A stretch of 64,000 nt of DNA, taken from positions 1 to 64,000 of the IMG/VR virus record IMGVR_UViG_3300031521_000011; one strand, given 5' to 3'. Origin of the DNA: a virus. The notes under the pieces were generated by a model. It did no database searches and was not told the origin of the DNA. It saw only the letters and a list, made by a program, of their open reading frames with translations. Below, in pieces: positions 14,170 through 61,236 of the stretch. Position 1 is the first letter of the stretch. Each line of letters begins with the position of its first letter. A program made the position numbers and the translations under genes.

Positions 14170-14364
14170 ATGGAAAAAACAGGAACGATATACTGTGGTA
14201 TGAACATATACATCAATCCTTTAACGGGTGAACAGTTCCAGAAGACTGCAGGCGAGAAGTTTGAACGCATGGACTCACGCCAATTGAAAGTCGAACAGCG
14301 CTTCATAAAGAAGCATGCGAAAGATATGGCTAACAAGATAGGGGAGGTTGCACTCAATGGATAA
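14170..14364 (+). CDS. Small hypothetical protein
   Basis: GAAAGGAG RBS before MEKTG; overlaps the next gene. Confidence 0.6.
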   Translation: MEKTGTIYCGMNIYINPLTGEQFQKTAGEKFERMDSRQLKVEQRFIKKHAKDMANKIGEVALNG

Positions 14365-16876
14365 GTTTGCTGCAAGTTTGGCTGAAGGTTTCATTCCAGA
14401 AAGAACCATGCAAATGAACCTCGATCCTCAGTACGATCAGATTCGCAAAACTGCCGGCATGGTGCTCCATGGCAAGAAATCTGATGACATCAAGAAGTTC
14501 GTTTTGAATTATATACGCCCTGACCTGAAGGCCGCTGGTGTTGAGGGCGAATTGAGCTGCTCTATAGAGTCCTCGGATGTTGGAAAAAATGACAATAGCG
14601 ATATACTGGAAGGAACTGGAAAGGTAAACATTAAGAAGGATGGGGCCACAATTTCCATTCCTTTCGTCGTTTCTAGCGGAGAAGTTTCCATTGATGTGAT
14701 TCAAGTTGCCGATAAAACGATACCTTACGACAGAGAGAACTTAGGAAAAATATTTGAGGCACTTGGCCATGCTGGAAAAGAAAAAGCAGCGTTCGATGGC
14801 ACATCCGGCTTTATCGGAACAGAGAAGCCCATTGCCATGAGCACTGACCCAGGCTTCCTTGCTGATGTCATGCAGATTCGTGACAAGCATGTCAGCAAGA
14901 ACATTGTTGATGGAAATCATTATGTCTATGCCTTCGAGCATCTTGACACTGCTCTCGAAAAGACTGCGGGTATCGCCGAACTGACGAAGGCATCGTTGGC
15001 GACGATAGAGCAGCTTGCTGTAGCAGCATTTGAAAATGAAGTCGAAGAGCAGATCAAGAAAGCATGCGCGGGCACGGAAGACATGGATAAACTGGCAGAA
15101 GATGTCAGGATGTTCCTTGAGGACGCAGCCGGCCTGTCCTGGAAGCTTGCATCGCAGATTGCTGATGGCCAGCACATTGTCTTCCCTGAGAAGAATGGAA
15201 AAGAAATTTCAATGACTCACGCTGTAGTGTTCAAAAATGCATTGCTTATGCGTGAACCATACGATATGGCGCAATCATTAAGCGACAGCGCTTCTCCGTA
15301 TGAACATGATCGCAACAACCTGCAGAAGATGGAGTATGACAATAAGAAAAACTCCATTATCATTATCACGAACGACAACAGATTTGTTGTTCTTCAAAAC
15401 AACGAACCATTCTGGGCTATTGAGTCGGATGAGTCGTGGACATTCAAAACAACAACCCCATGGGCTATGCAGCCGAGCAGCATTTACTGCGGCATATTCG
15501 GTAACTCCATCACGTTCCCTTTCCAGGTTCGTTATGTTGAAAATGCAACCAAGCGGGATGTCAACGCTCCAATGCCTGATGGCATCATTGAGTCCACAAT
15601 GGCTCAGGTCGACAACATCCCGAAGATCCTCAGGGCTCGCTGTTCTGAATGGCCTTCGGAGAATCACAGCTTCAACCTGATGGGCATCCCTGGCACAAGA
15701 TTTAAGGCGTTGACAGCGCAAGCAGCGCAAGATGCGTGGAAGGGCCTAATGAAGGATATCTCTCCTGAGTGGGCGATGAGAATCATGGCCACCACCAGTT
15801 ATGGCGATGTCTGGGCTACCGACCCTGAACTCACCCGTCTCATTCCCATCAAAGGATTCATCGGAGATTATCTGCGCAATGCAAAGCAAGTCGAGTTCAC
15901 CGCCGGTGATACCCTGTTTAAGGAAGCCGGCAGCCAGATGGTCAAGCTCACGTGCTATGACAAGATGCGTGGCATCTTTGATGTTTATGTGCAATACAAA
16001 AACGACGTCAACAAGATCTTCAAGACCACCATCAAAACCTTCAACAAAGTTGACCGCTATACCGTTATGGGCATCCTTCGCACCATCGGGTTTGCTCCTT
16101 CCGAAGTGGTTGAGTTGGTTGAGAAGGCCAGCATCAACAACACAGCCTCCGCCGATATGCCAAAGGATGCAACCCCTGAGAACATCGAAGGCGGCGACAC
16201 TCAGACAAAGGCAAGAGCTCTTGTGAAGAAGCTCGTCGGCAAGGCTTTGACAGCAGACAACGTCAGCAATATGGGCGCATCCATCGCCGGGGCCCAGCTC
16301 GCAGACATCGCAGAAGACAATGACAATCTCAAGCACATCCTCACATCCGTGCATGAGTGGACAAAGAAGTCAGAGTTGTGTGCATGTGAATTCGAGAAGC
16401 TTGCCATCGAGACACAGTCGGACCAGGCACTCAACGTGGCCAAAGTATTGGTCTCAGCATACTACACCGGCACAGCAATCGGTGATGCCTGCAATGGCAA
16501 GGTCATGAATCATTTCAAGGAAGCGATGGAGTCCGTTCGCGCTGCTCAACCCGAGATCGAGAAGCTTGCCTACGAACTTATTGCTATGAAGATAGACGGA
16601 TTCAAGGCTGGCACACAGATCATTTCTCCGAATCTCATTACAGCAGCCATCGGATGCATGGACAGGTTGGTCAAGGTGGCCAACTCTGGCGGCACGGCAC
16701 ACTCAGAAGTGATTTGTGAGGAGTGTGGTAAGAAGGCCGAGGCCGGGCAGCAGCTCATCCAGGGTAAATGCCCCGCATGCTACCAGGAAGAGCAGCAGAA
16801 AAGCAATGACGGCAGCGCTACGGTGATCCAGGATGACAAAGACAGAGTAACCCCAGTATCATCATCAATGCAGTAG
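14357..16876 (+). CDS. Large K-x-A-rich protein with C-terminal Zn ribbon, probably virion/head associated
   Basis: 839 aa; GGGGAGG RBS; more than ten K-x-A sites (MDKFA, EKTA, DKLA, EKLA twice, FKEA twice); CEEC...CPAC. Confidence 0.6.
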   Translation: MDKFAASLAEGFIPERTMQMNLDPQYDQIRKTAGMVLHGKKSDDIKKFVLNYIRPDLKAAGVEGELSCSIESSDVGKNDNSDILEGTGKVNIKKDGATISIPFVVSSGEVSIDVIQVADKTIPYDRENLGKIFEALGHAGKEKAAFDGTSGFIGTEKPIAMSTDPGFLADVMQIRDKHVSKNIVDGNHYVYAFEHLDTALEKTAGIAELTKASLATIEQLAVAAFENEVEEQIKKACAGTEDMDKLAEDVRMFLEDAAGLSWKLASQIADGQHIVFPEKNGKEISMTHAVVFKNALLMREPYDMAQSLSDSASPYEHDRNNLQKMEYDNKKNSIIIITNDNRFVVLQNNEPFWAIESDESWTFKTTTPWAMQPSSIYCGIFGNSITFPFQVRYVENATKRDVNAPMPDGIIESTMAQVDNIPKILRARCSEWPSENHSFNLMGIPGTRFKALTAQAAQDAWKGLMKDISPEWAMRIMATTSYGDVWATDPELTRLIPIKGFIGDYLRNAKQVEFTAGDTLFKEAGSQMVKLTCYDKMRGIFDVYVQYKNDVNKIFKTTIKTFNKVDRYTVMGILRTIGFAPSEVVELVEKASINNTASADMPKDATPENIEGGDTQTKARALVKKLVGKALTADNVSNMGASIAGAQLADIAEDNDNLKHILTSVHEWTKKSELCACEFEKLAIETQSDQALNVAKVLVSAYYTGTAIGDACNGKVMNHFKEAMESVRAAQPEIEKLAYELIAMKIDGFKAGTQIISPNLITAAIGCMDRLVKVANSGGTAHSEVICEECGKKAEAGQQLIQGKCPACYQEEQQKSNDGSATVIQDDKDRVTPVSSSMQ

Positions 16877-16886
16877 GAGTGAAGAC

Positions 16887-17786
16887 ATGGAGAAAATAGC
16901 GGAAGAATCAAATGCTCGCGCAATGAAGGGCGCCAACTCGGAAAGATTGTATACCGCACTGCGCCTGGCTGAGCTGAAAGAAGTGGAGCAATATAAAAAG
17001 GATAACAAGAAATCTATCCTTACCGGCGTAGCGGCCGGCATTGCTCCCCCTGTGATCGGTGCTTTGATTGGCTCTCGTATTGGGAGCAAAGAATACAGAG
17101 GCGCCAGGGCTATTGCTGGCGGAATTGCGGGCGGCGTCCTTTCTCCATTTACTGGCACGGGCGCCTATGTCTTAGATGCGTGGCGAAGGGCAAACAAAAG
17201 AACCTTCAACCACCCGGCGCTGGTGAGAGAAATGCTTGAGGAGAAGAATGCCTCCGAGGATCGCATCGATATGTATAAAGACCAAATCATGGAAAAAGTA
17301 GCAACATCCGCATGGCGCTCTCGCGTTCACCATATGTTCAACGCCGGGGATATTCATGGTGCTGCAGATATGCTCGGCAGGATAAAAGCATCTCCATACA
17401 AGAGCCTTGTAGCTGATTCTTTTCGTAAGGGCGCTACAAACGATGCCTATCTGTTACTCAAGCAGAATGGCAAAGATGGATTGATGAAGGGTATTGCTAA
17501 TCTCCAAGAATCATTAAAGATGCGTCAACGAGCTGGAGAGGCTCTAATCACAAGCTCGCCAAAGACTGGATTTGTTCACTATGAATTGGAGTCTGCAAGA
17601 AGGTCGCTGAACAACAATAAGCAGCGGTTGGCTGATAAGACTCAGAGGTACGGCGCAACACCTAGCCCAAAGAATCAGGAATATCTGAATGATCTAAGGC
17701 AGCGTATCCGGAGGGATGAAACTGACCTGCATCGCGCCAAAACAAACGCCCGTGTTTATCTCAATGGAGCCAAGGGTAATAAGTAA
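16887..17786 (+). CDS. Two-module K-x-A leader protein (Gly-zipper module plus TSAW module)
   Basis: MEKIA start; internal YKDQIMEKVA-TSAWRSRV junction; second module homologous to the tail of the SNF2 protein. Confidence 0.7.
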   Translation: MEKIAEESNARAMKGANSERLYTALRLAELKEVEQYKKDNKKSILTGVAAGIAPPVIGALIGSRIGSKEYRGARAIAGGIAGGVLSPFTGTGAYVLDAWRRANKRTFNHPALVREMLEEKNASEDRIDMYKDQIMEKVATSAWRSRVHHMFNAGDIHGAADMLGRIKASPYKSLVADSFRKGATNDAYLLLKQNGKDGLMKGIANLQESLKMRQRAGEALITSSPKTGFVHYELESARRSLNNNKQRLADKTQRYGATPSPKNQEYLNDLRQRIRRDETDLHRAKTNARVYLNGAKGNK

Positions 17787-17798
17787 ATCCGCTTGACA

Positions 17799-17838
17799 AG
17801 CCCTAGCAATTGCTAGGGCTTTTTCTTTACTGTATAAT
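17799..17838 (+). terminator. Intrinsic terminator overlapping a SigA-like promoter (TTGCTA-N17-TATAAT)
   Basis: AGCCCTAGC-AATT-GCTAGGGCT followed by TTTT. Confidence 0.55.
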
Positions 17839-17850
17839 GAATGGCGTGAG

Positions 17851-19974
17851 GTGCGAGAGATGTTAAAACGGGCTGCATTGAATAAAGATGTAAAGTTAAG
17901 ACCACACCAACAGCGCATCGTTGATGCTGAAGGTGATGGCATCGTTATAGCACACGCACCCGGCAGCGGGAAGACACTCAGCAGCATAGCTCGATTCGAG
18001 AAGCAGAAAGCCAATGGTAAGGCCAAGAAAGCCCTCGTTGTTGTGCCTGCAGGTCTCCGAGACAACTTTGGTGTTTCTGGTGTTGGTAAATTCACAAATA
18101 GCTCTTATCAAATCATAGGCAACAAGCAGGAGATCTCTAGTGGATCCGCATACGGCAATCCAGATCCCAACAAAGATTACAACATCATCTCCTATGAGAT
18201 GTTCAGGAGCAATCCTGATTATTATATAAAGGCTACGGGTGCAGACACCCTCATTTCAGATGAAGCCCATCGCGGAAAGAATGAGGACACTGCGACCCTG
18301 AAGAGCATTCGTAAATCACGCCCGAAATTCAAAAACTACACAGGCCTCACCGGAAGCGTGATCTCGAACAAGATATCCGATGTCTATCCTTTAATTGATG
18401 TGGCATCGGGCGGGAATAATCAACTCGGCGTAAAGAACAAGGACGAGTTTGAGTCGAGGTATCTAGCCCGCAGCAATGAAAAGGCGTATCGAGGAATGCC
18501 GCCGGCAAGGATTCCAGTAGTTGGATTCAAGCATAGGGGCCAACTGAAGAGTGAACTCGGAAAATATATCGATTACATGGATGAGGATGACATATCTGAT
18601 GTGGCTGATATGCCTCGTAAGAAGGTCAATGTCAAAAAGGTCCCCATGACAAAGGAGCAGGCCAAGCTCTACAAGGGAATACTGAATGACAACCCGAAGG
18701 TACGGCAGATGATCGTCAGAAAGCGCCTGGAGACACTCAAAGATGATGAGCTATCGAAGCTCTATTCGTCAATGATAGAGTCCAGGAAACTAGTCAATAG
18801 CGTGGGCTCCGTGACCCCGGGTATGTCTTTAAGGGAAAGCCTAAAGAGAACGCCGAAGACATCTCAGATGCTGGATGATCTGTCTGATCATTTGAGCAAA
18901 ACCAAAGATGGCCAGGCTATCGTGATGAGTCATCTCATCAATGGTGGAATTGATATTGCAGAGCAAGGCCTCAAGGACCGCAAGATATCATATGGTAAGT
19001 TCATTGGTAAGGGCAACGAGGGTGTATCAGAGGAGTCCAGGCAAAAGGCTGTTCAGGATTTTAACAAGAGGAAGAATCGCGTGATGCTTCTCTCTTCTGC
19101 CGGCGGAGAAGGCGTTTCCCTGAATGATACAACATGGGAAGGTGTCCTGGACCCACATTATAATCCTGAGAAGATGAAACAGATGGAGGCTCGGGGCATC
19201 CGGAGTGGCGGATTGAGCCATAGGCCACGTGAAAATCGTGAAGTCGAGGTCAATAGATACATGTCCACGATGCCTCGGCGCTTATTCGGCATGCTGCCAC
19301 CCAAGTATAAAAGCCCGGATGAGGTCATATACGACATCGCCAATCGCAAAGAGCAGCAGAACAAGATTTTACAAAACCTTATGAAGGAGAATCACAAGAA
19401 GATGGAAAAGATATCGATGGAGAAGATCGCCACATCCGCCTGGAAGAGTCGTGTTCGTAATATGATTCATGCCGGTGACCTTAAGGGTGCGTCAAATATA
19501 CTTGGAAGATTTCGTGCTGGTGCAATCAACTCGGAAGTCCCAGACTTTATGAGCACGGTTGGGCATGGATCCAGCGCAGATATGATAGAGGGCGAGATGA
19601 GGTCCAACTGGAAGAACCTCATTCACACCAAAGAGCCGCGGTACAAATCTACACAGCCACTTACTTCTGATGGCTCATATCCGGAAAGTGCACATGCAAT
19701 GCATAAGCTTCTTAATGATGGCAGCATAAATCTGGTGAGGTCAACACTTGGGCCCGATGACTTTACCAGAAAAATGATGAGATCAAAAAGAATGAGAAAT
19801 GAGTTAATGAGGGCGCGTAAGACATATGATGATGCAGGCGTTCTTGCTGCTACAAGTCGTAAAGGAGATCTGGGCAGAAAGACCAAGCAGAAATTGGACG
19901 ACTCTATGGATGAACTGGTAAACGCCAAAGTAAATGCTCGGCACATGATTCATATAAATAAGAACACAAAGTAG
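17851..19974 (+). CDS. SNF2-like superfamily 2 helicase with an appended MEKISMEKIA module
   Basis: LRPHQ, APGSGKT, VVVPA, SDEAH, GLTGS, AGGEGVSL, YNP..QMEARGIR; extra module of about 190 aa from 19402. Confidence 0.88.
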   Translation: MREMLKRAALNKDVKLRPHQQRIVDAEGDGIVIAHAPGSGKTLSSIARFEKQKANGKAKKALVVVPAGLRDNFGVSGVGKFTNSSYQIIGNKQEISSGSAYGNPDPNKDYNIISYEMFRSNPDYYIKATGADTLISDEAHRGKNEDTATLKSIRKSRPKFKNYTGLTGSVISNKISDVYPLIDVASGGNNQLGVKNKDEFESRYLARSNEKAYRGMPPARIPVVGFKHRGQLKSELGKYIDYMDEDDISDVADMPRKKVNVKKVPMTKEQAKLYKGILNDNPKVRQMIVRKRLETLKDDELSKLYSSMIESRKLVNSVGSVTPGMSLRESLKRTPKTSQMLDDLSDHLSKTKDGQAIVMSHLINGGIDIAEQGLKDRKISYGKFIGKGNEGVSEESRQKAVQDFNKRKNRVMLLSSAGGEGVSLNDTTWEGVLDPHYNPEKMKQMEARGIRSGGLSHRPRENREVEVNRYMSTMPRRLFGMLPPKYKSPDEVIYDIANRKEQQNKILQNLMKENHKKMEKISMEKIATSAWKSRVRNMIHAGDLKGASNILGRFRAGAINSEVPDFMSTVGHGSSADMIEGEMRSNWKNLIHTKEPRYKSTQPLTSDGSYPESAHAMHKLLNDGSINLVRSTLGPDDFTRKMMRSKRMRNELMRARKTYDDAGVLAATSRKGDLGRKTKQKLDDSMDELVNAKVNARHMIHINKNTK

Positions 19975-19982
19975 GTGCCGTA

Positions 19983-21338
19983 ATGGAAAAGATATCGATG
20001 GAAAAGATTGCCGCCGCTTTTGGGATAATAACTTTCCCAAAGGCGGAGTATAACTCATTAACGAATAGGCTTGCCCAGGGCAAGCCTATAATGACAACTA
20101 GGGTGAGTTTAGAAAAAGATAAATACAAAGTAGGAAAGGTATATAGATCAGACCTTGGGGTAAAATTAAAAGTTGTAAGTGTGAAGTCTTACAACTCTAT
20201 TAATGAACATCCCTATTTAGGTGAGTTGACATCAACTCAAAAGAATGCAATCTCTAAATATGGACCGTATGATTTTATCGTACTTAGAAAAGTCTCTGAA
20301 GCAATGAATAAAGATGCTATGGAGAAGATAGCCCTTCCGAAATGGAAAAGCATATATGGGGAGCTCTCTCAGTTTGCAAAGAACAAGCTCTTAATGAGCG
20401 GCATTCATAACCCTGAAAAGGAAATGTTTGGCATACAAAAAGGAACTAGGCAACTTGTTAAGTCTCAGGGCGGGATTATTGATAGATCAAAAACTGGTCA
20501 TAAGATAATCCATGAGATTATGACCAGAGGAAAACAAATGGGAGATAGCTCAGAAGAGATTGATGCTTTAAAAAATATAGTGAGTCTCAAGCATGATCGT
20601 GGGCGTGGGTTCATGACAATTCCTATGGTTAAAGGCGTACCAAATGTTACTGATTCAAAATCAATTGTTGGGCAAGGTAGTTATAAAAGACACTTAAGTC
20701 CAGAACCAGCAGAATTTTTAAAAAAACAGAATAGACTGTCTGGAGATGATTTATTTCAATTTGTACACGACGCTATGAAAAAGGGTACAAAATCTGAGCG
20801 CAATTATTTAGATGCATTGGCAAATCGGCACGAGGCTGACGAATTGAGATACTTCAATAAAAATACCAAACTAGGTAAGCACACAAAGATGACAGAAAAA
20901 GGTGAGTGGCCTAGAACAAGTATCCTGGGCCACCACATATCCCCCAACGTATTACATCAAGAATCCACACACATAGCTCTTGCTCCACCGAATGTTGGAA
21001 ATGTGTTACTAACCATGCGTGGTAGTCCAGATTACGGAGATGAGGGAGTATGGTTAAAAAAGCATGGTTTGGAATATGGAAAAAGCACAAGGTTCAATAA
21101 AAAACTTGCAAAGAAACTCGATGACGATTTGATACGCACTAGTATTGAATATGAGGCGCGCTCCAAACGTCTTGCTGAATATAAAGCACGCTCAGCTAAA
21201 TGGGAAGCAGAGGATGCAATTGATCAAGCTAATTATGACGCTAAACTCAAGAATACCAATGACTTTAATGATAGAAGAAAAGTAATGGATGAATATTATG
21301 AATCTAAACGTCAAAAACGCATGGACAGATATAAATAA
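19983..21338 (+). CDS. MEKISMEKIA-leader protein with two modules
   Basis: N-terminal leader plus internal KDAMEKIA at about 20310-20333; highly basic. Confidence 0.7.
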   Translation: MEKISMEKIAAAFGIITFPKAEYNSLTNRLAQGKPIMTTRVSLEKDKYKVGKVYRSDLGVKLKVVSVKSYNSINEHPYLGELTSTQKNAISKYGPYDFIVLRKVSEAMNKDAMEKIALPKWKSIYGELSQFAKNKLLMSGIHNPEKEMFGIQKGTRQLVKSQGGIIDRSKTGHKIIHEIMTRGKQMGDSSEEIDALKNIVSLKHDRGRGFMTIPMVKGVPNVTDSKSIVGQGSYKRHLSPEPAEFLKKQNRLSGDDLFQFVHDAMKKGTKSERNYLDALANRHEADELRYFNKNTKLGKHTKMTEKGEWPRTSILGHHISPNVLHQESTHIALAPPNVGNVLLTMRGSPDYGDEGVWLKKHGLEYGKSTRFNKKLAKKLDDDLIRTSIEYEARSKRLAEYKARSAKWEAEDAIDQANYDAKLKNTNDFNDRRKVMDEYYESKRQKRMDRYK

Positions 21339-21358
21339 AACAAGAGTAGGTGAATGTG

Positions 21359-22084
21359 ATGGAAAAGATATCGATGGAGAAGATTGCCCTGAACGCTCAG
21401 AAAGCCCGGGAGATGGCAAGCGCCGCCGGGCTTCTTCCTTATGGTAAGTGGAAGATAGCATTGAAGGCTATGAGGAATGGTCGGGGCGATCTCCTTCAAG
21501 GCCGTGCGCTCGCTGAGACTAAGCAAAAGCTGGGTAAGTTACCGAATAATGTAAGGCAAAGGATACTGAGCATAAATGATCGATATAATCCAGGTAAAGA
21601 AATTCTGGTTGCCATGGATAAGCAGTGGGATAGCAATAAATACGAGAGACCATACTTCACTCTTGGTGGTCATGATATCTCAACCAGGGCCGGTCTTTCT
21701 AAACTTATTGCCCATACTCACCCACAAGAGTCGTTAACGAAGACATTAAGATCAAAGATGACGGTGAATAGAGTAAAGGAGCTTTACTTACCAAGGCGTC
21801 AGAGAATTATCGATACTATGGATTTGAATGATCCTAAGGTTGCTGCTCGGCTCCGTAATTTGGATTCTATCTGGGATAGTACAAAAAATCTTGAGAAAAT
21901 GCTTAAAGAGCCGCAGTCAGGAATGAGTAGCACAGATCTTTCATCTGCAGTAGAGGATATTCGCCAGCTTGGAACGAGTCATGATCGTTCAAGTATTATA
22001 GGCCATGGCGACCAAACCGAAGGTATCCACACCGTTATGCCTGACGGCCGTGCAAAGTCCATCTACTTCAAGTATAATAAGTAG
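21359..22084 (+). CDS. MEKISMEKIA-leader protein with a possible JAB/MPN-like motif
   Basis: Leader; E...IAHTHP...SSTD. Confidence 0.65.
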   Translation: MEKISMEKIALNAQKAREMASAAGLLPYGKWKIALKAMRNGRGDLLQGRALAETKQKLGKLPNNVRQRILSINDRYNPGKEILVAMDKQWDSNKYERPYFTLGGHDISTRAGLSKLIAHTHPQESLTKTLRSKMTVNRVKELYLPRRQRIIDTMDLNDPKVAARLRNLDSIWDSTKNLEKMLKEPQSGMSSTDLSSAVEDIRQLGTSHDRSSIIGHGDQTEGIHTVMPDGRAKSIYFKYNK

Positions 22085-22099
22085 TATGGGGGTGGGCTT

Positions 22100-24238: not shown

Positions 24239-24248
24239 GGTGAAATAA

Positions 24249-24668
24249 ATGTCTGATAAATTCGTAAAGGCGAGAGATGCTCAGGGAAATCCAATTGAGG
24301 TAGCGAGCGAAAATGGACTCGGCGTAGTAGCCAACATTCTCTATCTGCTTCGTAGGATTGTAAAGTTGCTTGAGTCAAACGCTGTAACAGATTCGCAACA
24401 GCGCCAAAAGGTTGTTGTTGAAGGTACAGTAGCTGCATCATTAGCTGCCTCAAGCGGTACATCTGTAATCTCCGGTACAGTTACGGCTAACATAGCCGGT
24501 TCGGCAGGAGTCGGCTCTCTTGTTGCGAATACGGCTGCAGGCAGTCCTTATGCCTCATCAAGTCAAACAGCCCAACTGGTTATGGAAGGTCCTGTTTCTC
24601 AAGAGTGGCGTATAATTGATGCCGCAAGAACTTCATTCGCAGTTGGAATAAGAACAAAGTTAACATAA
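24249..24668 (+). CDS. Hypothetical virion protein (fibre-associated)
   Basis: GAGGTG RBS; lies between two fibre-like genes. Confidence 0.65.
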   Translation: MSDKFVKARDAQGNPIEVASENGLGVVANILYLLRRIVKLLESNAVTDSQQRQKVVVEGTVAASLAASSGTSVISGTVTANIAGSAGVGSLVANTAAGSPYASSSQTAQLVMEGPVSQEWRIIDAARTSFAVGIRTKLT

Positions 24669-24681
24669 GGTGGTGTGACAT

Positions 24682-27510: not shown

Positions 27511-27520
27511 GATTGAGGCC

Positions 27521-27563
27521 AAAAAAAAGAGAAGTGCCCGGCATAATGCCGGGCACTTTGTTT
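27521..27563. terminator. Bidirectional intrinsic terminator between convergent blocks
   Basis: A8 tract, AAGTGCCCGGCA-TAA-TGCCGGGCACTT, T-rich tail. Confidence 0.8.
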
Positions 27564-27897
27564 AATCTTTCAGAACAACATCATCGCCTCGGGTCAGTCC
27601 CCTAAAGGTATGCGGCTCATCAGTTTTGAGAGCCGGGATAAACACATCTTTGCGCGTTGCCCTTAACGCTGACACAACCGCCCAGTTAGCAAGGTAGATT
27701 GTGTCAGGTTCTTCTGGAGGTAGATGTTTAATTCCATCGGAAACCGCGACAACCACCGGCAATCCGGCAATGCGATCGACTTCCTTTAGGCTTACTTGGG
27801 AATTTGCGGCTTGCTCTTGTATTGATAGGGCATGGATAACTTTACCATTATCATCTACGAATTTGATCGGATGCCCTGTTAGGTTAACGATTTTCAT
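27562..27897 (-). CDS. Phage hypothetical protein, NLTxH family (paralogue of 35063..35410)
   Basis: MKIVNLTGHPI...LPPEEPDTIYL...RKDVFIP; RBS. Confidence 0.7.
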   Translation of the reverse strand: MKIVNLTGHPIKFVDDNGKVIHALSIQEQAANSQVSLKEVDRIAGLPVVVAVSDGIKHLPPEEPDTIYLANWAVVSALRATRKDVFIPALKTDEPHTFRGLTRGDDVVLKD

Positions 27898-40508: not shown

Positions 40509-40870
40509 TCTTCTGTCCCCTTCTTTAATATAGTTTTTTCGCGAAACCTGTTCACAGTAAGGTTTGCTGCCTGTGAGCTTCTATGATACTGAATCGTAGA
40601 TTTGCCGTTGGCTCTGTTGATAAGGGATACCCATGGTAGCACAGCTCCATTGTCCCTGAAGACAAACTTACCAGGTTCTTTGTTCTCAATAAGCTTTCTG
40701 CCAAGTTCAGTGGATATAATCTGAATCTTTTTCATATTGCTCACCTCTCGATAAAATTACACTATTATCATATCACAACCTTTCATTGTTTTATATCTTA
40801 TACAAATCTTCCATTAAGTTGATATATTGGAAGATTTATCTTATAATAAATAAAAAGGATGGTGAGTGTT

Positions 40871-41206
40871 ATGGAAAAGATATCTATGGAAAAAATAGCG
40901 CTCCAGGCCGGTATCAAATATAAAATTTCAGGTAAGGTTCCGAGAGATATTAGGGCCATGCAAACAATAAACTTAGTTAAGAGTAATCTTAAGAAGTATA
41001 TTGCCTTGGTAAACAAGACAAAAAAGGCTACTGGCCTATCGTATAAGTCGGGAGAATTTTCCAATGTTCAGAAGAATATTGAATCTGGAAATGAAACCAT
41101 CAGAATGCTGACAGATATGAGGAAAAATACATTCCCACTCATGATAAAAGCGCATGGTAATAGTAAAAAGACTGTGTTGAAAAAGATTCCGAAAGAGGTA
41201 TTTTAA
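40871..41206 (+). CDS. Basic MEKISMEKIA-leader protein
   Basis: Leader MEKISMEKIAL; GGTGAG RBS. Confidence 0.7.
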   Translation: MEKISMEKIALQAGIKYKISGKVPRDIRAMQTINLVKSNLKKYIALVNKTKKATGLSYKSGEFSNVQKNIESGNETIRMLTDMRKNTFPLMIKAHGNSKKTVLKKIPKEVF

Positions 41207-41207: not shown

Positions 41208-41711
41208 ATGAATAAGCTTGCAATGTACAAAGAAGCCATCTACAAACGAGCAACACGTGTTGCCAATCCCTATATATTTAGGGGTCCAGCATCGAATGAG
41301 GACCCTGAATCCTACTCAGCCCGGCTGCAAGGCATGTACGATAAGGGTGAGAAAATAAAGAACACCGCCAACATCGCCAGCCTTGGTATTGGTGCTGGCG
41401 CATTGGCGACAAGTATCCTGTCCGGACGCGGTGCATCGAAGCGGCTTAAGCAACTCGCAGACTCTGGCAAACTTGATGCCCTGGCTCTCAAGATCAAGAA
41501 GTCCGTTCCTGAAACCAAGCAAATATTGAGCCGTGCTATTGGACGGCGCATTGGCCTCTCTGCCGGCGCCGGAATCGGTGGAGTACCGGCCATGATGCTT
41601 ACTGAGGGAATCGGTAGAACATTGGCCAACAAATCAACACTCAGATCCATGACACCTGATGAGCGTCAGCGCTATAATGATGTCACCAAAATCAGACACA
41701 ATGGAATATAG
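41208..41711 (+). CDS. YKExIYK-leader Gly-zipper protein
   Basis: MNKLAMYKEAIYKRA; GIGAGALA and GAGIGG segments. Confidence 0.7.
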   Translation: MNKLAMYKEAIYKRATRVANPYIFRGPASNEDPESYSARLQGMYDKGEKIKNTANIASLGIGAGALATSILSGRGASKRLKQLADSGKLDALALKIKKSVPETKQILSRAIGRRIGLSAGAGIGGVPAMMLTEGIGRTLANKSTLRSMTPDERQRYNDVTKIRHNGI

Positions 41712-41723: not shown

Positions 41724-42374
41724 ATGGACAAGGTAGCAGCATATAAAGAGGCCATCTACAAGGTGGCTGCAGAAGGAAAGAAAAATCCGAATTCATCTTT
41801 TCTGTTCCCCTTGAACCGTGATTACATCCGTGAGGAGGATTTTTCTCCCGCGTATGCAAAGGCGTCAAGGGAACAGGGCCATATCAATAAGGTTGTTGGC
41901 GGCGTTAGCCTGGGTGGTTTGGCACTTGGTGGAGGCAGCGTAATCGGCGGTTTTGCTCTTGGTGCGAAAACCGCAGACAAGGCACGAAGGCTTGCTAAGC
42001 CAGCTGCCAAGGCTACTCTAAATATCATCAAAAGAGATATTTACAATGGCAGAAGAGGAATGCAGGACCTCTTTAGCCCCGTTCATTCTGAGATAGCTGC
42101 TCACAACGTCCTCAACAAGTCTAAGATTTTTAACGACGTAACGAAGCGACTTCGTCGAAACAACAAAATCGCTGACGGCTTAGTCCTTGGCGGGTTACTC
42201 GTTCCCTCAGTCGCGATGGCAGCTGCCAGTGCTCCATTTATGAAGAAGCGTCAGGAAGTGGTCAAAAGCCTGATGAAGTCAGCGCCCCGCAATAGGAGTG
42301 AGGAGAATTTCAAGGCGGACATGCTAAATCTGCCGAAGAACATCTCTCCAAGGAAACGCCACGCCGATGAATGA
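41724..42374 (+). CDS. YKExIYK-leader Gly-zipper protein
   Basis: MDKVAAYKEAIYKVA; GGVSLGGLALGGG. Confidence 0.7.
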   Translation: MDKVAAYKEAIYKVAAEGKKNPNSSFLFPLNRDYIREEDFSPAYAKASREQGHINKVVGGVSLGGLALGGGSVIGGFALGAKTADKARRLAKPAAKATLNIIKRDIYNGRRGMQDLFSPVHSEIAAHNVLNKSKIFNDVTKRLRRNNKIADGLVLGGLLVPSVAMAAASAPFMKKRQEVVKSLMKSAPRNRSEENFKADMLNLPKNISPRKRHADE

Positions 42375-42433
42375 TACCGGTTTACTTGCTCAGTAAGTAG
42401 TGGTATCATAGCAGTCGAAAGGAAGTGTTAATT

Positions 42434-43165: not shown

Positions 43166-43175
43166 ACCGAAGTCC

Positions 43176-43641: not shown

Positions 43642-43715
43642 GATAACCCCTCCATTGTGTTTTATTGCTTATACTCCGTTTTTACCTTATAATAAATCGA
43701 GTAGAGGTGAGTAAT

Positions 43716-44462
43716 ATGGAAAAGATATCTCTTGAAAAAGTCCATCCTGCCCTTAAAGAGATGCAGGATTCGTTTGAAGATCCGGTTTCAAAGAAAGTGG
43801 CTACGATGATTGCCACTTCTCATGAATATAAAACTCCCAACATAAAAGCCGGGCACCACTTTACGAGGAATTACAGATGGAGCAATGGCACGATGAAGAT
43901 CAGTGACCTTCAGGGTATCAACAAGCCGATCACGCAGGAAAAGGTTGATAGCCTTGTGAAAGCCATTGGTAAGTCTGGCAGGGTAGATCCTTTCGTTGTC
44001 GTGAACCAGTTAGATGCCATCCGCCCACAGACGCCCGGCAAAAAAGTATTGATCGACGGACATCACCGGCTGGAGGCCTGCAAGAAACTCGGCATCGATG
44101 AAGTCCCTGTATATCGCGGCGACTACACTGGCGATGCTCACAGGGATATTGAGGAATTAAAGAAGGCAGCCAGCTTTGCGTCTGTCTATAATTTTGTTTA
44201 CAATAATCCATACCTTGGTATGGGAAAGGAAGCCTCTCAAGATGGCATCTCGGAAGTCCGGCGGCTCACAAAAGATCGCCAATTTACCATTGACCCAATC
44301 GTTGCAGGTGAGTTGGGCGGGCTTGGCCTTATGGGAACCTCTCTTATCATCAAGAAGAGACTTCCGTCAAGGAGTACCTTGCTTCGCAACGCTGGTATCG
44401 GCATCGGTCTCGGCAGCGCCGCAATTGGCACGGCTCGCACGATCAGAAAGGGTGAAAAATAA
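43716..44462 (+). CDS. MEKISLEK-leader protein with ParB/Srx-like domain
   Basis: KVDSLVKAI..PFVV..LIDGHHRLEA..LG..EVP; internal KKAA and KEA sites; Gly-rich tail. Confidence 0.75.
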   Translation: MEKISLEKVHPALKEMQDSFEDPVSKKVATMIATSHEYKTPNIKAGHHFTRNYRWSNGTMKISDLQGINKPITQEKVDSLVKAIGKSGRVDPFVVVNQLDAIRPQTPGKKVLIDGHHRLEACKKLGIDEVPVYRGDYTGDAHRDIEELKKAASFASVYNFVYNNPYLGMGKEASQDGISEVRRLTKDRQFTIDPIVAGELGGLGLMGTSLIIKKRLPSRSTLLRNAGIGIGLGSAAIGTARTIRKGEK

Positions 44463-45589
44463 TGGGAAAGACTTATATGGAAGAGATGTTCAAAAACGCA
44501 GCAAGCGAAGAGGATGATTTCGCCAACCTTATGGGAAGTCTTAAACATACCAATCGTGATGATTGGGAGAGCGCAGTGACGAAGCATAATCCAAACTGGA
44601 AATATGTCTATCCAGTATCGCCAGATGGTGGAGCTCCATATGTTCTTCAGGAGGGCAATAGATCCAGTGGACTGATCGCCATGCATCACAAGAATGGAAA
44701 AATATCCATTGCTCTCTCTTTTCATCCTGAAGGATTTGATCCAAATGAGCACGTGCGGTCCGTATTTGATGTTTCTGGATCAGGGCGCAGAAACGAAGGC
44801 TTTACACTTGATAATGCTGCATCTGCTAACTTTCATCCCAAGGGTTTTCATGGAGAAGATGCATACAGCGTTACAGATAAAGGGCAAGTTCGCCATGGGC
44901 GTGGTGAGCGCCAGGCGGTAGCTCCTAAAGCGAAACCTCAACCGAAATCCGAACCGAAGGCTGAACCAAAGCCAGAGCCGAAACAGGAACCAAAGACTCA
45001 ACCAAAGCCTGCTGAGTCACAGATGCAACAGGCGTTTTCGCAACCTCAACCAAAAGCAGCGCCACAGCCCCAGCCAGCGCCCCAGGCTGCACCGCAGCCA
45101 CAGGCACAGCAGCCCACCCCACAAGTACAGCCTCAATCCGCGTCGCAGCCACAGGCCCAGCCACAGCCTCAGCAGCAGGCTACACCTAAAGCTCAACCAC
45201 AACCGCAGGCAGCCCCGGCAGCAGCGCCAGTTCCTCCCGTTGCGGCTGCAGAGGGAGTTGAGCAGGCCGCAGCTAAGGAAGCACCACAAGCCGAAAAAGG
45301 CTTGCTTACAGCCATCAAAAAGCTTAAACTATCACCAGGATTAGCGAAGGCTGCACCATGGGTTGGTGGAGGCGTTGCCGGATTAGCGGCGGGCGCTGGC
45401 TTGATGGCGATGAGCAACAAAAAGAAACAGCAAAAGACTGCAGTATATAAAGAAGAAATTTATAAACTGGCTGGCCTGATGTCCGCTCCTAAAGCAGTGG
45501 CAGCAAAGGTACCATCCTTCAGTAAGCCGAAGATCGCAAAAGCGGTAAATCGTGCTCGTAGAGCATCATTCGTAAAATCAATTCATTAG
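44462..45589 (+). CDS. Pro/Gln-rich K-x-A protein with internal YKEEIYKLA linker
   Basis: PQ/AP low-complexity region; Gly-rich hydrophobic segment; QKTAVYKEEIYKLA. Confidence 0.7.
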   Translation: MGKTYMEEMFKNAASEEDDFANLMGSLKHTNRDDWESAVTKHNPNWKYVYPVSPDGGAPYVLQEGNRSSGLIAMHHKNGKISIALSFHPEGFDPNEHVRSVFDVSGSGRRNEGFTLDNAASANFHPKGFHGEDAYSVTDKGQVRHGRGERQAVAPKAKPQPKSEPKAEPKPEPKQEPKTQPKPAESQMQQAFSQPQPKAAPQPQPAPQAAPQPQAQQPTPQVQPQSASQPQAQPQPQQQATPKAQPQPQAAPAAAPVPPVAAAEGVEQAAAKEAPQAEKGLLTAIKKLKLSPGLAKAAPWVGGGVAGLAAGAGLMAMSNKKKQQKTAVYKEEIYKLAGLMSAPKAVAAKVPSFSKPKIAKAVNRARRASFVKSIH

Positions 45590-45598
45590 GAGGAAGTA

Positions 45599-46057
45599 AT
45601 GGATAAGGTTGCATTTTATAAGGAACAAATCTACAAAGTCGCCTATACTTCTGCTGGATATAATAGACTCTATATGACAAAGGACCTTAAAGGCAGAACA
45701 AACGTAAAGTATAAAACACCAAATCGGGTTCCTATGCGCTTTAAGAACGAGCGCGTAGATCCATCAATGTCGATGGTCCCGGCTGGTCCTGTGAAAACGC
45801 ACTCAAATCCCAGCAGACTCAGGCGACTGAGGAAAATAAACAATACTCGCCACGGTCTCAGTAGGGATACGAGAGAAGCAATCCGGCTTGGTGGAGCAGT
45901 TGATTCAAAGGCAGCTAAGGAAATTGCCGAAAAATCATTAGCCCGGGCCGCCAGTAAGGGCATGCCGCTATATGCCGGCGGGGGAATTGGACTTGCTGCA
46001 ATTGCGGCTGCCGCAATTGCAATGAGCAACAAAAAAAAGCACAAAGATGCTGAGTGA
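45599..46057 (+). CDS. YKExIYK-leader basic protein
   Basis: MDKVAFYKEQIYKVA; GGGIGLAAIAAAA-MSNKKK. Confidence 0.72.
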   Translation: MDKVAFYKEQIYKVAYTSAGYNRLYMTKDLKGRTNVKYKTPNRVPMRFKNERVDPSMSMVPAGPVKTHSNPSRLRRLRKINNTRHGLSRDTREAIRLGGAVDSKAAKEIAEKSLARAASKGMPLYAGGGIGLAAIAAAAIAMSNKKKHKDAE

Positions 46058-46068
46058 GGTGGATGGAT

Positions 46069-46770
46069 ATGGACAAAGTAGCTTTTTACAAGGAATATAT
46101 CTACAAGGTTGCCGACGCTTATGATGATATCATCAAGCGTAATGAGGCAAGTAGGCCCAGGATGTATACCGTGAAGCCAAACGGTGAAACAATTCTCGAC
46201 GGATTCATTGCCGACGAAAAATACTCTAAGCCAAATGTGGACCGTACTGTTTCTGGAGTCAAGGATCTGCTGAAAACCAAGGGTGGAAAGCTTAAGGTAT
46301 TGAAGCCATACCTTATTGGCGCTGCTGGCGGCGCTGCCTTGCTTGGGAGCGGCATGTCGCTCATGGAACAACGTCGGAAAAATATGCGTAAGCGCATGCA
46401 TAAATCAGCTTCATTTATTGACAAACTCCTTGGAAAAAAAAAGCCCAAACCCAAGTCTAAGGCCAGACTCCAGTATGATGCTCTGGTAGCAAGCGAAGAA
46501 GCGGCAGAGGCGCGGCGTCTTAAAAGAGAACAGGAAGCTGTTGCAGCCCGGGCAGAGAAATTCAGATCCCAAAGAGGACCTCTTCGACTGACCAGCGGGG
46601 CCTCACAAGCAGCTCCTGCGGCAAAGTCCACAATAATCGATGCAGCACCGACCATTGCAAGAAAGATTCCGAAACAGTTACTCAGGAAGGCCGGGCCGTG
46701 GGCGCTTGGCGGACTTGGTTTAGCCGGGGGTGGTGCGGCAATACTCAGTAGGAAAAAAGAAGACAAATAA
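46069..46770 (+). CDS. YKExIYK-leader two-module protein
   Basis: MDKVAFYKEYIYKVA; internal MHKSA; two Gly-rich hydrophobic segments. Confidence 0.72.
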   Translation: MDKVAFYKEYIYKVADAYDDIIKRNEASRPRMYTVKPNGETILDGFIADEKYSKPNVDRTVSGVKDLLKTKGGKLKVLKPYLIGAAGGAALLGSGMSLMEQRRKNMRKRMHKSASFIDKLLGKKKPKPKSKARLQYDALVASEEAAEARRLKREQEAVAARAEKFRSQRGPLRLTSGASQAAPAAKSTIIDAAPTIARKIPKQLLRKAGPWALGGLGLAGGGAAILSRKKEDK

Positions 46771-58330: not shown

Positions 58331-58557
58331 GGGTGAGAGTGCTCCTTTCTTTATTTTGGAAATTTTAGAAACGAAAAAAGCGGTTCTATTTGCGCTTCAT
58401 AGAAACCATCTGCCTTTCCTATTTTATATCTTGTGTCATAGCCATTTTCCTTTTTTTTCCATTTCCGTCTTTAATTGCAGGTATGAGTCAAATCGATTAT
58501 AATGAACTGAGTAAAAAGCATTATACCACAAAACAATCCACAGTTGGAGGAGTTAAA

Positions 58558-59250
58558 ATGAATCAAGTTAAATTCAAGCAAAAGACTGCCACAGAAATTA
58601 TTGAGTTCCTAAAAGAAGCAAGGGCTATGAGGCCAGATGAAAGCAAACATGATCCATATAAAACCACGAAGACTGTAGGAAAGGTAAATGCCATTGATAT
58701 GGGTCTTAATATAGGACAGGACCTGGTTGCGAATATGGCTGGAGCGCTTACTGTCGGATTGGCAGGCACTGCGCTTGGTGGACATTCCAAGTTGCATACT
58801 CCAGAAGATATAGCAAAATTGAAAGAGAGCCTGGAGAGTTATAATCATACGCCTGAAGCACACACCCGATTGCACAATGTTATTAATGAAATGCAGCGTG
58901 GTGGAGAGGCAAGTCTCGGCGATACAATGAAGAACATCGGGCATAGCTTCAGACGTGATGGCTATAAGAAGACTATGGATGGAATTAAGGCAGCCACAAA
59001 AACACCGGCCTTTAAAGATGCTCTTTCATCTTTCAAGAATTCACAAAAGATTCTGATCCCTGCAGGTTTAGGATTGACGGGCCTTTATACCTTAAATGCA
59101 TATAATCAAGATCGAAAAGATCTTCTTGCTCAGCAAAAGGAAATGAAGAAAACTGCAGCAGTCATTGAGCAGTCAATGCCGCATGCCCGGCCAGAAGATA
59201 TTCCAGGGACATACTGGTGGATTCGCTCGATGATGGCCAAAAAAAAGTAA
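58558..59250 (+). CDS. K-x-A Gly-zipper protein
   Basis: GGAGG RBS; QKTA and KKTA sites; two Gly-rich hydrophobic segments. Confidence 0.65.
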   Translation: MNQVKFKQKTATEIIEFLKEARAMRPDESKHDPYKTTKTVGKVNAIDMGLNIGQDLVANMAGALTVGLAGTALGGHSKLHTPEDIAKLKESLESYNHTPEAHTRLHNVINEMQRGGEASLGDTMKNIGHSFRRDGYKKTMDGIKAATKTPAFKDALSSFKNSQKILIPAGLGLTGLYTLNAYNQDRKDLLAQQKEMKKTAAVIEQSMPHARPEDIPGTYWWIRSMMAKKK

Positions 59251-59281: not shown

Positions 59282-59284
59282 GAT

Positions 59285-59362
59285 TGGTTGCGGGTGAAGG
59301 ATTTGAACCTCCGAACCTTCGGGTTATGAACCCGACGAGCTACCAGACTGCTCTAACCCGCG
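59285..59362 (-). tRNA. tRNA-Met(CAU), initiator type, encoded CCA
   Basis: Full cloverleaf; C1-A72 mismatch; GGG/CCC in anticodon stem; CAT anticodon; TTCAAAT T-loop; 3' ACCA. Confidence 0.95.
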
Positions 59363-59367
59363 ATAAT

Positions 59368-59396
59368 GTTATACCATTTTTACGACTTGCTGTCAA
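59368..59396 (-). promoter_or_regulatory. SigA-type promoter of the tRNA
   Basis: TTGACA-N17-TATAAC with TG extension, directly upstream of the tRNA. Confidence 0.75.
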
Positions 59397-59644
59397 CTCT
59401 TATAAACGATTCCGTCCTCAGAGTGTGATTGAAACTGGTGGAGAGCAGAAGCAACTTCAGCCACTCCGCCCGGTTTGGAAAGCACGTTGCGCTGAAGTGC
59501 GCGAACAAATGAGTCCATAATAAGATCGAGACCACTGCTGTTGAGTAAAATGCGAAATGAATTGTCTTTATAGGTACCTGAAACTTCAAGCCTATTGTTA
59601 CCTTTTTTTTCTTCTTTCGCCTCAATAAAAAGAACCGATGCCAT
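59393..59644 (-). CDS. Hypothetical protein
   Basis: GAGGAGGTG RBS; motif at 59663-59677. Confidence 0.6.
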   Translation of the reverse strand: MASVLFIEAKEEKKGNNRLEVSGTYKDNSFRILLNSSGLDLIMDSFVRALQRNVLSKPGGVAEVASALHQFQSHSEDGIVYKS

Positions 59645-59766
59645 AACAGCACCTCCTCATTGTTTTATTACTTATACGGTTTTTCTGATTATGAAATGAA
59701 AATTGCGCCTGTTTTGAGATTGTGGTATGATAATCCAGAGAATATGCTGCGGAAGAGGTGCAAACA

Positions 59767-61236
59767 ATGAATTACACATATAGAGACGCTTTGATGGATT
59801 TAGAGAAACTTGAGTCAACATTGCTTACTGAGGAATTTGAGAAATTCGCAGAAGAGATGATGGAAAAAGAAGCTCTGCCACTTGGCGCTATTTGGAGTGG
59901 CCTCAAGGCTTTTGGAACTGGCGCAGGTCAAATATTGCGCGGTGCCGGCAGATCTGTCGCTCCTGCATTGAAGGGTGTTGGTTCAGCACTTTCAAAAGGT
60001 GTAGGCGCAAAGACCCTTGCAGAAGGTGTTGATGGCGCCAAAGGTTTGAAGAGTTCGCTTGGCGAACTTGGTAAGACAGTAAAGGGCCAGGCCTCCGGCG
60101 TCGCAGATAAGATGAAGGACCTTGGAACTCAGACTAAGAAGTTCATGAATCCTCCAAAACCGGTTGCGCCAACTCCTCCAAGTACGGCGCTGGCTACTAT
60201 TCCGAAAGAGAAGGGATTTACTACCCCGGATGGAGTGAATACCCAATCCAACACGGCGGCGGGAAGAAATGCTGGAAAGCCCAAAACTGGTCTCGCTACA
60301 ACACCGAAACCAAATACAGACTTCACCACCCCAGGCGGAGTAAATACCCATTCTGATACAGCAGCCGGAAGACGGGCTGGTTCTGGACTTCCTGCGCAAA
60401 GACCAGAAAGTGAATGGCTCATGAATACAATGATACCTAAAGAGCAAGCTGCTGGTGCAGCCGGCGCTGTCAAGAAGAAGATGCCTGAATGGGTGGTCCC
60501 CGGTGCGGTTGGTGTCGGCGCGGGTGCATTGGGTATGCATGCATACGACAATAATCAGGCGGATAAGGCTGCAAGCGATGTTTCTTGCACAGACATGCTT
60601 GGTTATATGGATGTTTTGGCGGCCTCATTATCTGAAGAAGATTTTGAGAAAATTTCTCAGGAGATTATGGAAAAGAACGCCAATGTGCTTATCAATATGG
60701 GAAAAGCCATTGGTCGGAGTGCTGAATCAGCCGGTGCTCGCAAAGCAATAGGCGCAACCCTTAAACAGGACGTTAAAGCTGCAAAAGGAACTTTTAAGGC
60801 TGGCGTTAAAGACCTGAAAGATAAGGCCAAGCTGGATAAAGGCAATGTCGGAAAACCCGCCCCCGCAGCAGCCCCGGCAGCGGCAGCTACACCAACTCCC
60901 GCAGCGGCCCCGGCAGCAGCACCGGCAGCGGCTCCACAGTCTTTAGCGACTCCAGCCCCGGCGGCCGGCGCAACCGGCGCGGCCCCGGCAGCACCTGGAA
61001 AGAAGCCAAAGAAACCTGCCTCCTTTACCGACAAGGTAAAAGCATTCGGAACAGGTGCAGGCGTAGGCGCACTCGGCGTAGGTGTTGGATCGCAGTTTAT
61101 AGGGAAGAAGCCTGATGAGCAGCAATCGGTGTATGCATGTGCCGACATCCTTCATGATTTCGATAAGGTTTCTGTTGATTTAAGTGAAGAGGACGTAGAG
61201 ACTCTTGCAAAAGAAATCCTGCGTGATATCATGTAA
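59767..61236 (+). CDS. Modular K-x-A protein with three acidic helical repeats and Ala/Pro-rich linkers
   Basis: L..EE.FEK..EE.MEK.A repeat three times (third degenerate); duplicated FTTP.GVNT.S.TAAGR; Gly-rich hydrophobic segments. Confidence 0.7.
   Translation: MNYTYRDALMDLEKLESTLLTEEFEKFAEEMMEKEALPLGAIWSGLKAFGTGAGQILRGAGRSVAPALKGVGSALSKGVGAKTLAEGVDGAKGLKSSLGELGKTVKGQASGVADKMKDLGTQTKKFMNPPKPVAPTPPSTALATIPKEKGFTTPDGVNTQSNTAAGRNAGKPKTGLATTPKPNTDFTTPGGVNTHSDTAAGRRAGSGLPAQRPESEWLMNTMIPKEQAAGAAGAVKKKMPEWVVPGAVGVGAGALGMHAYDNNQADKAASDVSCTDMLGYMDVLAASLSEEDFEKISQEIMEKNANVLINMGKAIGRSAESAGARKAIGATLKQDVKAAKGTFKAGVKDLKDKAKLDKGNVGKPAPAAAPAAAATPTPAAAPAAAPAAAPQSLATPAPAAGATGAAPAAPGKKPKKPASFTDKVKAFGTGAGVGALGVGVGSQFIGKKPDEQQSVYACADILHDFDKVSVDLSEEDVETLAKEILRDIM

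Follow-up and report, generated by a model that had tools for sequence, protein, structure and literature searches.

Tandem K-x-A pentads as candidate prohead protease sites and cargo leaders in an uncultured phage

In phage T4, the internal proteins IPI-III and Alt carry a capsid-targeting sequence (CTS) that is removed by the prohead protease gp21 (Mullaney and Black 1996, as cited in PMC5694885), and in phiKZ-like phages (SPN3US gp245, 201phi2-1) A/S/G-x-E propeptides with several copies of the motif are found together with many ejection proteins, including the virion RNA polymerase (PMC10052503, PMC5694885). Here we describe a family of short K-x-A leaders and linkers in the first 64 kb (the window) of IMGVR_UViG_3300031521_000011, the complete 168,244-bp record of an uncultured virus. 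Judging from sequence, we consider it probable that this pentad system represents T4-like propeptide and polyprotein-linker processing by the phage's own prohead protease, with the cut after Ala. The late and structural genes of this phage are located in plus-strand blocks, and the head module was placed just past the end of the window; the protease gene lies in this module, beside the genes for the scaffold-like proteins and the major capsid protein.

Approximately 15 unrelated proteins carry short repeated tags of the MEKIA type, either at the N-terminus or between modules, and one short N-terminal leader is thus common to otherwise unrelated proteins, as for a T4-type CTS. All leader copies reported in a preliminary description of the window were present at their positions. 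In the first family, MEKISMEKIA occurs at 19402-19431 (internal, aa 518-527 of an SNF2 helicase), 19983, 21359 and 40871, MEKISLEKV at 43716, and MEKIA at 16887 and 20319 (internal), with an additional MEKIA at 68651, beyond the window. The second family, K-x-A-x-YKExIYK-x-A, is found at 41208, 41724, 45599 and 46069, internally at 45431-45472, and as a variant at 17271-17303. Both families consist of tandem five-residue units, hydrophobic-x-Lys-x-Ala; MEKIS-MEKIA contains two units of hydrophobic-x-K-x-(A/S), MDKVA-FYKEQ-IYKVA contains three, and a four-unit leader (MDKIA-MEKVA-MYKEA-IYKEA) was identified in one relative. The payloads showed no mutual BLAST matches except for one paralogous stretch of 43 aa.

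At the DNA level, the family-1 leader is present as a 26-nt sequence in four copies (three exact and one with two mismatches) compared to none in 100 shuffles, in agreement with the near-identity described previously, and the identity ends at the borders of the 10-codon leader. The family-2 copies carry many differences at synonymous sites, indicating that selection acts on the leader peptide. Since family 1 shares approximately 30 nt and family 2 has diverged at synonymous sites, the earlier suggestion that payloads are swapped by recombination at the shared DNA appears weak. Tandem leaders are confined to plus-strand late genes; the claim that no leader occurs on the minus strand therefore holds for the tandem form, while a single hydrophobic-x-K-x-A near the N-terminus was seen in 16/78 plus-strand open reading frames (ORFs) and still in 10/119 minus-strand ORFs (P 0.018). 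A degenerate family-1 leader-DNA pattern was absent from five relatives, and the family-2 pattern was found in IMG/VR only in two relatives of this phage, so that the exact leaders are private to the clade. The leaders of the relatives are worded differently yet keep the pentad, e.g., MS(N/Q)LLMEK(I/V)A and MDKIAMEKVAMYKEAIYKEA.

The predicted head-maturation protease offers an independent view of the motif. Its AlphaFold2 model has a predicted local distance difference test (pLDDT) score of ~90 over aa 30-193, followed by a long helical region with low-confidence linkers. A sequence search of the protease against solved structures gave no match. In Foldseek, the best PDB match was T4 gp21 (5jbl, probability 1.00, target template-modelling score 0.59; root-mean-square deviation 3.3 A over 165 columns), and the human cytomegalovirus protease 1nkk was also matched (probability 0.91). 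As modelled, the catalytic domain (aa 30-193) has the T4 gp21 / herpes assemblin fold, and H85, S136, H162 and H187, which are invariant in 59 homologues, are candidates for catalytic residues.

In 120 homologues of the protease, K-x-A was observed 2.54 times as often as expected (1905 vs. 751), with none below 1.6. The sites at K24, K222 and K581 are 98-99% conserved in this set, and those at 211, 801, 280 and 559 are 70-81% conserved; in five orthologues K-x-A is found at the same places with diverged flanks. The conserved sites are located at aa 24-26 before the catalytic domain, in a cluster at 211-282 after it, and further at 559-583 and 801, thus bracketing the domain in or beside the low-confidence linkers of the model. 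The pooled consensus of 711 conserved sites, [LIMF]-E-K-[TVI]-A followed by S, equals the MEKIA core of the leaders. A flank-only matrix built from the conserved protease sites, excluding this phage's own protease, identified 29 sites in the genome, 25 of them on the plus strand, compared to approximately three per shuffled proteome, and these included four leaders, the capsid N-arm, aa 47 of the portal, a scaffold-like protein and the 59758 protein. The leader core is thus the same motif as on the capsid, portal and scaffold-like proteins and the protease itself, a relation between leader and head proteins that also holds for the T4-type CTS. A complex prediction of the catalytic domain (aa 27-205) with residues 1-40 of the 41724 protein scored 0.02 and speaks neither way.

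Enrichment was analyzed by scanning 400 residue pairs at gaps 0-3 (1600 pairs) with correction for each protein's own composition. K-x-A was the top pair of the 1600 in 23 head and leader proteins (139 vs. 84.3 expected, P 3e-8; 1.65x, a modest enrichment for the bare motif) and flat in the other 185 ORFs (173 vs. 188 expected), which answers the question of whether the motif exceeds composition in the proteins concerned. The richest proteins were the protease (17 vs. 6.6), the 14348 protein (16 vs. 6.9, P 0.002) and a 196-aa scaffold-like protein (9 vs. 3.4). Of the three window proteins previously described as punctuated by K-x-A, the 14348 protein is thus enriched, the 58390 protein (5 vs. 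2.6) is individually non-significant, and the 59758 protein has seven sites and falls outside the 30 most enriched proteins. Flank preferences were found in the head-set sites only (P5 Met 6x, P4 Glu 3x, P1' Ser 2.8x), the preferred residues being Met/Ile/Phe at P5, Glu at P4, Ile/Val/Thr at P2 and Ser at P1'. The A/S/G-x-E pairs of the phiKZ-like code showed no enrichment in the pair scan, where K.A ranked first, and the motif is hydrophobic-E-K-x-A and not the L/I-x-E code.

Nine IMG/VR contigs encode capsid proteins 57-74% identical to that of this phage, and three complete genomes and one partial contig were compared; the G+C content of the relatives is 31-38% vs. 46% in this phage. Across eight head-protein families (23-57% identity), K-x-A was kept at the aligned position in 34.9% of comparisons, compared to a mean retention of 11.9% for all i,i+2 pairs, and ranked second of 174 pair types. 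The capsid protein has two N-terminal K-x-A candidates (aa 7-9 and aa 32-34), its N-arm K-x-A aligns with that of phage Arash, and the N-arm was picked by the protease-derived matrix. A C-terminal cut site in the capsid protein was also considered and rejected, as it is not conserved in the clade of this phage, where the aligned place reads K-L-I and the chain continues. Of the 282 residues of the phage G capsid protein, the deposited chain 6wkk has 1-280, with ...A-K-I-S as its last residues, while the capsid protein of Arash has ...G-K-V-A-L-A at its end; a K-x-(A/S) cut two residues before the C-terminus would suit both. At approximately aa 293 the capsid protein of this phage is without a nine-residue segment present in 8/8 aligned relatives, which could be a real deletion or an assembly error.

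The positions of the motif at module junctions were compared between genomes. In the SNF2 helicases of five genomes, the motif stands directly before the core in 5/5, being N-terminal in three and internal, behind a fused module, in two. Among database homologues, K-x-A precedes the core in 76/78, at one fixed offset in 74/78, and directly so in 57/59 N-terminal and 19/19 internal cases; homologues with a C-terminal extension have a leader-like K-x-A junction after the core in 12/12, before quite different modules. In two relatives (G005 and G002), the second module of the 19983 protein (aa 110-385) has a gene of its own that starts with a leader, and the ParB module of G002 is embedded in a chain of 882 aa, flanked by FEKAA and IDKIAM..IYKAA junctions. 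SNF2 homologues in other uncultured phages are fused to PARP (PF00644), DNA ligase (PF01068), KTSC (PF13619) and other domains, which looks like a varied set of enzyme cargo.

At the N-terminus of the phage sigma factor, the motif is present in 4/5 genomes, and K-L-G is found in the fifth. The RNA polymerase, which is probably packaged in the head, is depleted in K-x-A in 5/5 genomes (41 vs. 71.3 expected, P 7e-5), and this depletion fits an enzyme that has to survive in the prohead beside the protease. In the cultured phage Arash, the homologous protease and three neighboring head proteins are enriched in K-x-A and the tail proteins are not, and the helicase, sigma factor and RNA polymerase are among the proteins found in its virions (PMC10585845, Table 2). 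The coverage values of that table seem unreliable (100% with 2 peptides) and were disregarded. In phage G, the protease gp19 contains eight K-x-A sites vs. 2.4 expected, and phage G gp21 is likewise K-x-A-rich.

Based on the positional conservation in orthologues, the consensus of the protease sites, the junction positions, the protease fold and the depletion of the polymerase, it is well supported that K-x-A is the recognition site of the head protease, that the leaders are removable N-terminal propeptides and that the internal copies are linkers between modules, all as read from sequence. The cleavage and polyprotein claim of the preliminary description thus stands for the recognition site and the linker role, while the cut itself, like residence in the head and ejection of the leader proteins, is something we infer. 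In the proposed mechanism, the pentad hydrophobic-(E/D)-K-(I/V/T)-A, with S, A or G as the usual next residue, would be recognized by the prohead protease, which would cut after its Ala. Leaders would consist of one to four tandem pentads, an N-terminal leader would be the short propeptide of a head-internal protein, and internal pentads would act as linkers at which the protease separates fused modules once the chain is inside the prohead. The remaining sites would free the catalytic domain from the long helical C-terminal part of the protease and fragment that part, dismantle the scaffold-like proteins, and trim the capsid N-arm and the portal N-terminus. That the leader also serves as an address into the prohead core, as in the T4 CTS, is the least secure element. 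Tentatively, and with somewhat less than even expectation, the tandem (hydrophobic-E-K-x-A)n may further be a portable code that binds the core-resident protease, recruits proteins to the prohead and is then erased, shared across a large clade with Clostridia-type hosts whose members are mostly uncultured, simpler in phages G and Arash, and combining the gp21 fold with a herpesvirus-like Ala/Ser specificity; if so, a pentad placed before any module would make it capsid cargo or part of a polyprotein.

Several observations weigh against processing at K-x-A or limit how far it can be taken. Since the bare enrichment is just 1.65x, many copies cannot be sites, and the set of head and leader proteins was picked partly from the finding itself. 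Either of the two N-terminal capsid sites, aa 7-9 or 32-34, may be the one used, and the phage G capsid protein is without K-x-A at the aligned place. Only 7/17 protease sites lie within segments of pLDDT <50. Because its offset is fixed, the pre-core K-x-A of the helicases could belong to the helicase fold and not be a cut site. No leader is present on the RNA polymerase, and in Arash both the helicase and the sigma factor are leaderless although they are virion proteins, so the leader is not needed for packaging in the Arash lineage. Good matrix matches also occur in four minus-strand proteins and at the N-terminus of the large terminase, and cleavage, packaging and ejection are all deduced from sequence. 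The terminase match reads EFLEKYA (matrix score 7.0) in a protein that is not head-internal, and is possibly due to chance.

Could the pentad repeats instead be an uncleaved docking or assembly motif that recruits proteins to the prohead or another complex, e.g., an amphipathic helix that binds the scaffold or the C-terminal domain of the protease or drives oligomerisation? The hydrophobic residues of the family-2 leaders are spaced at approximately i, i+3/4 and i+7, the capsid N-arm LEKIALEKL aligns with a segment within the deposited phage G capsid protein, and the fixed offset of the pre-core helicase site would suit such a role. We nevertheless regard it as unlikely, given that the most conserved sites bracket the catalytic domain in predicted linkers, that a cut site, unlike a docking helix, should be depleted in the RNA polymerase, as K-x-A is, and that the 196-aa scaffold-like protein has nine copies. 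Assemblins cut between Ala and Ser; a small residue at P1 before Ser at P1', which they have in common with the pentad, is a signature of the protease type.

A cause at the nucleotide level, in which recent gene conversion or duplication of a 5' cassette, or an A-rich unstructured translation start, would have produced a functionless peptide, would account for the identity of three family-1 copies over 26 nt, and genes with high expression often have A-rich codons at positions two and three. This explanation is very improbable, as the identity ends at the leader edges, the family-2 copies have many synonymous differences, copies are found inside ORFs far from any start, and the pentad is conserved with different leader wording in orthologues of genomes with 31-38% G+C. 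It is a shade less probable still that the leaders are signals for a host system, i.e., export and signal peptidase for the Gly-zipper proteins or, by analogy with staphylococcal phage 80alpha, Prp, the L27 protease of Firmicutes: many leader proteins do have Gly-zipper segments followed by Lys runs and the protease homologues come partly from Clostridia-type bins, but soluble enzymes (helicase, sigma) bear the motif as well, and its density is highest in the protease and scaffold-like proteins of the phage itself. The L27-type motif ends in two Phe followed by Ala, and the leaders are hydrophilic and 5-15 aa long, unlike either this motif or signal peptides; processing of the Prp/L27 or signal-peptidase type was rejected on these motif grounds. 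Chance, finally, deserves hardly any credence. Although head proteins are rich in Lys and Ala, so that K- and A-rich helical proteins hold many K-x-A, and the head and leader set was chosen partly from the finding, the tests were composition-corrected per protein, the motif is positionally conserved, the matrix from other genomes cross-validates it, and the result was replicated in four related genomes and in Arash. Processing by the prohead protease thus remains our preferred explanation.

The leader-bearing and K-x-A-rich proteins and the genes of the head module are listed in Table 1. Pfam gave nothing for most leader proteins or for the protease, scaffold-like and capsid proteins, and among leader and head proteins PHROGs matched only the helicase, the ParB-like protein, the protease and the capsid protein. 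A megablast of 14000-27600 against phage records gave no match.

Table 1. Candidate leader and K-x-A-rich proteins of the window, and head-module genes beyond it.
Feature	Position	Strand	Characteristics
842-aa K-x-A-rich protein	14348..16876	+	Likely start ATG 14357, MDKFA leader; C-terminal zinc ribbon
299-aa protein	16887..17786	+	MEKIA leader 16887-16901; Gly-zipper; internal MYKDQIMEKVA linker 17271-17303
SNF2 helicase	17851..19974	+	Pfam SNF2-rel_dom and Helicase_C; MLKRA leader 17860-17874 before core
451-aa two-module protein	19983..21338	+	MEKISMEKIA leader 19983-20012; internal MNKDAMEKIA linker 20304-20333
~241-aa protein	21350..22084	+	True start ATG 21359; MEKISMEKIA leader 21359-21388
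~111-aa basic protein	40859..41206	+	True start ATG 40871; MEKISMEKIA leader 40871-40900
167-aa Gly-zipper protein	41208..41711	+	Three-pentad leader MNKLA-MYKEA-IYKRA (41208-41252)
216-aa Gly-zipper protein	41724..42374	+	Three-pentad leader MDKVA-AYKEA-IYKVA (41724-41768)
ParB-like nuclease-domain protein	43665..44462	+	True start ATG 43716; MEKISLEKV leader 43716-43742; C-terminal Gly-zipper
375-aa protein	44462..45589	+	Pro/Gln-rich stretch; Gly-zipper; internal leader copy QKTAVYKEEIYKLA (45431-45472)
152-aa protein	45599..46057	+	Leader MDKVAFYKEQIYKVA (45599-45643); C-terminal Gly-zipper anchor
~233-aa protein	46054..46770	+	True start ATG 46069; leader MDKVAFYKEYIYKVA (46069-46113); C-terminal Gly-zipper anchor
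Gly-zipper protein with K-x-A sites, weaker member	58390..59250	+	
492-aa protein	59758..61236	+	Two repeated acidic units ending FEK(F/I)(A/S)..(M)MEKxA, aa 27-39 and 296-308
Large terminase	genome 65389-67224		Head module, outside window
Portal	genome 73508-75829		Head module, outside window
Single-chain RNA polymerase, 2296 aa	genome 76254-83144		Outside window
Head-maturation protease, 882 aa	genome 91291-93939		N-terminus matches PHROG head-maturation protease, E 5.5e-6
Two acidic scaffold-like proteins	genome 94021-95675		Outside window
Major capsid protein	genome 96243-97241		Closest solved relative phage G gp27 (6wkk, E 7e-25)

The 14348 protein has neither a Pfam nor a PHROG match, and its orthologues in three relatives (G001-G003) are likewise enriched in K-x-A (71 vs. 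32.2 in total). In the 16887 protein, the module after the linker is paralogous to the C-terminal module of the SNF2 protein (aa 523-565 of the latter, 55% identity), a 180-aa module that follows the internal MEKISMEKIA linker (19402-19431) of the helicase. The G002 orthologue of the 21350 protein has an internal ..IYKEA site right before the homologous region, and in the 44462 protein a 38-aa basic tail comes after the internal leader copy. The 41724 protein has seven K-x-A sites vs. 2.95 expected, and its N-terminal site passes the protease-derived matrix, as do the aa 254 site of the 58390 protein and two sites of the 59758 protein, one of which has the top score of the genome. Of the payload labels proposed earlier, SNF2 was verified by Pfam, ParB-like received a weak Pfam signal and was supported by PHROG matches to ParB-like and nuclease families, and JAB-like was left unconfirmed, having no family match. 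In most of the small leader proteins (41208-46770, 16887-17786, 58390-59250), Lys runs come after hydrophobic Gly-zipper segments, an arrangement that often forms a C-terminal anchor, and if packed in the head these proteins may be membrane-active ejection proteins.

Amid the family-2 leader cluster, a cell-wall hydrolase with NlpC/P60 and PG_binding_1 domains (window 42425-43165) is encoded without a leader; in Arash, a cell-wall hydrolase is among the virion proteins (PMC10585845). Directly downstream of the leader-protein block, the genes of 22100-27510 are probably fibre or receptor-binding genes. They comprise a 712-aa collagen-like protein (22100-24238) with long runs of Gly-X-Thr/Gly-X-Y triplets, an ORF of 139 aa, and a protein of 942 aa whose Kelch match stays below threshold (E 1.3e-4, 22.3 bits; cut-off 25.3). 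Between two plus-strand leader-type genes, a tRNA-Met (CAT) is located on the minus strand at 59285-59362, and the listed 78-aa ORF at 59284-59520 is a mirror reading of this tRNA gene.

If the proposed processing holds, the T4 principle of coupling a capsid address to a protease site would also apply, under another code, in a phage lineage unrelated to T4, and a whole clade of gp21/assemblin-fold proteases would be predicted to cut after Ala in K-x-A. Phages G and Arash, both cultured, belong to this clade, and as mass-spectrometry data on their virions are published, the prediction is testable in principle. It would further yield a list of likely head-internal, ejected proteins (the SNF2 helicase, the ParB-like nuclease, the sigma factor and the Gly-zipper membrane-type proteins) and explain how cargo modules are shuffled among relatives. 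Being short and defined, such a tag could be used to load foreign proteins into capsids of this group of phages, a use to which the T4 tag has already been put.

A literature search for a prohead protease with K-X-A found nothing, and a processing motif is mentioned neither in the main text of the Arash paper (PMC10585845) nor in the phage G genome paper. As in T4, a short shared N-terminal leader is present on unrelated proteins, ends in the head-protease motif of the capsid, scaffold and protease, and is accompanied by the same protease fold (Foldseek 5jbl). In contrast, T4 uses L/I-x-E with the cut after Glu, while hydrophobic-E-K-x-A with a predicted cut after Ala is found here; the leaders are tandem pentads of the site itself and also occur internally as module linkers, and the protease has a helical C-terminal extension of ~650 aa. 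With the phiKZ-like phages the system shares multi-copy propeptides, a packaged polymerase (here probable), a preference for Ser at P1', and the processing of protease, portal, capsid and abundant internal proteins, which here is suggested by the motif. It differs from them in having Ala and not Glu at P1 and in its unrelated sequences, and their propeptides are long and unshared whereas a short portable leader recurs here. The herpes assemblins have the same protease fold family (1nkk), a cut at Ala/Ser, and self-release from a scaffold-like C-terminal extension, the latter two as predicted here, but they prefer a hydrophobic P3 residue where Lys is found here, and are enzymes of eukaryotic viruses with no family of leader-tagged cargo. 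Arash and phage G are the nearest in sequence, with homologous protease and capsid proteins and K-x-A enrichment in the protease and neighboring head proteins, although no portable tandem leader was seen in the parts of their genomes examined. Most likely the pentads thus form a T4-like processing system whose assemblin-like specificity is new.

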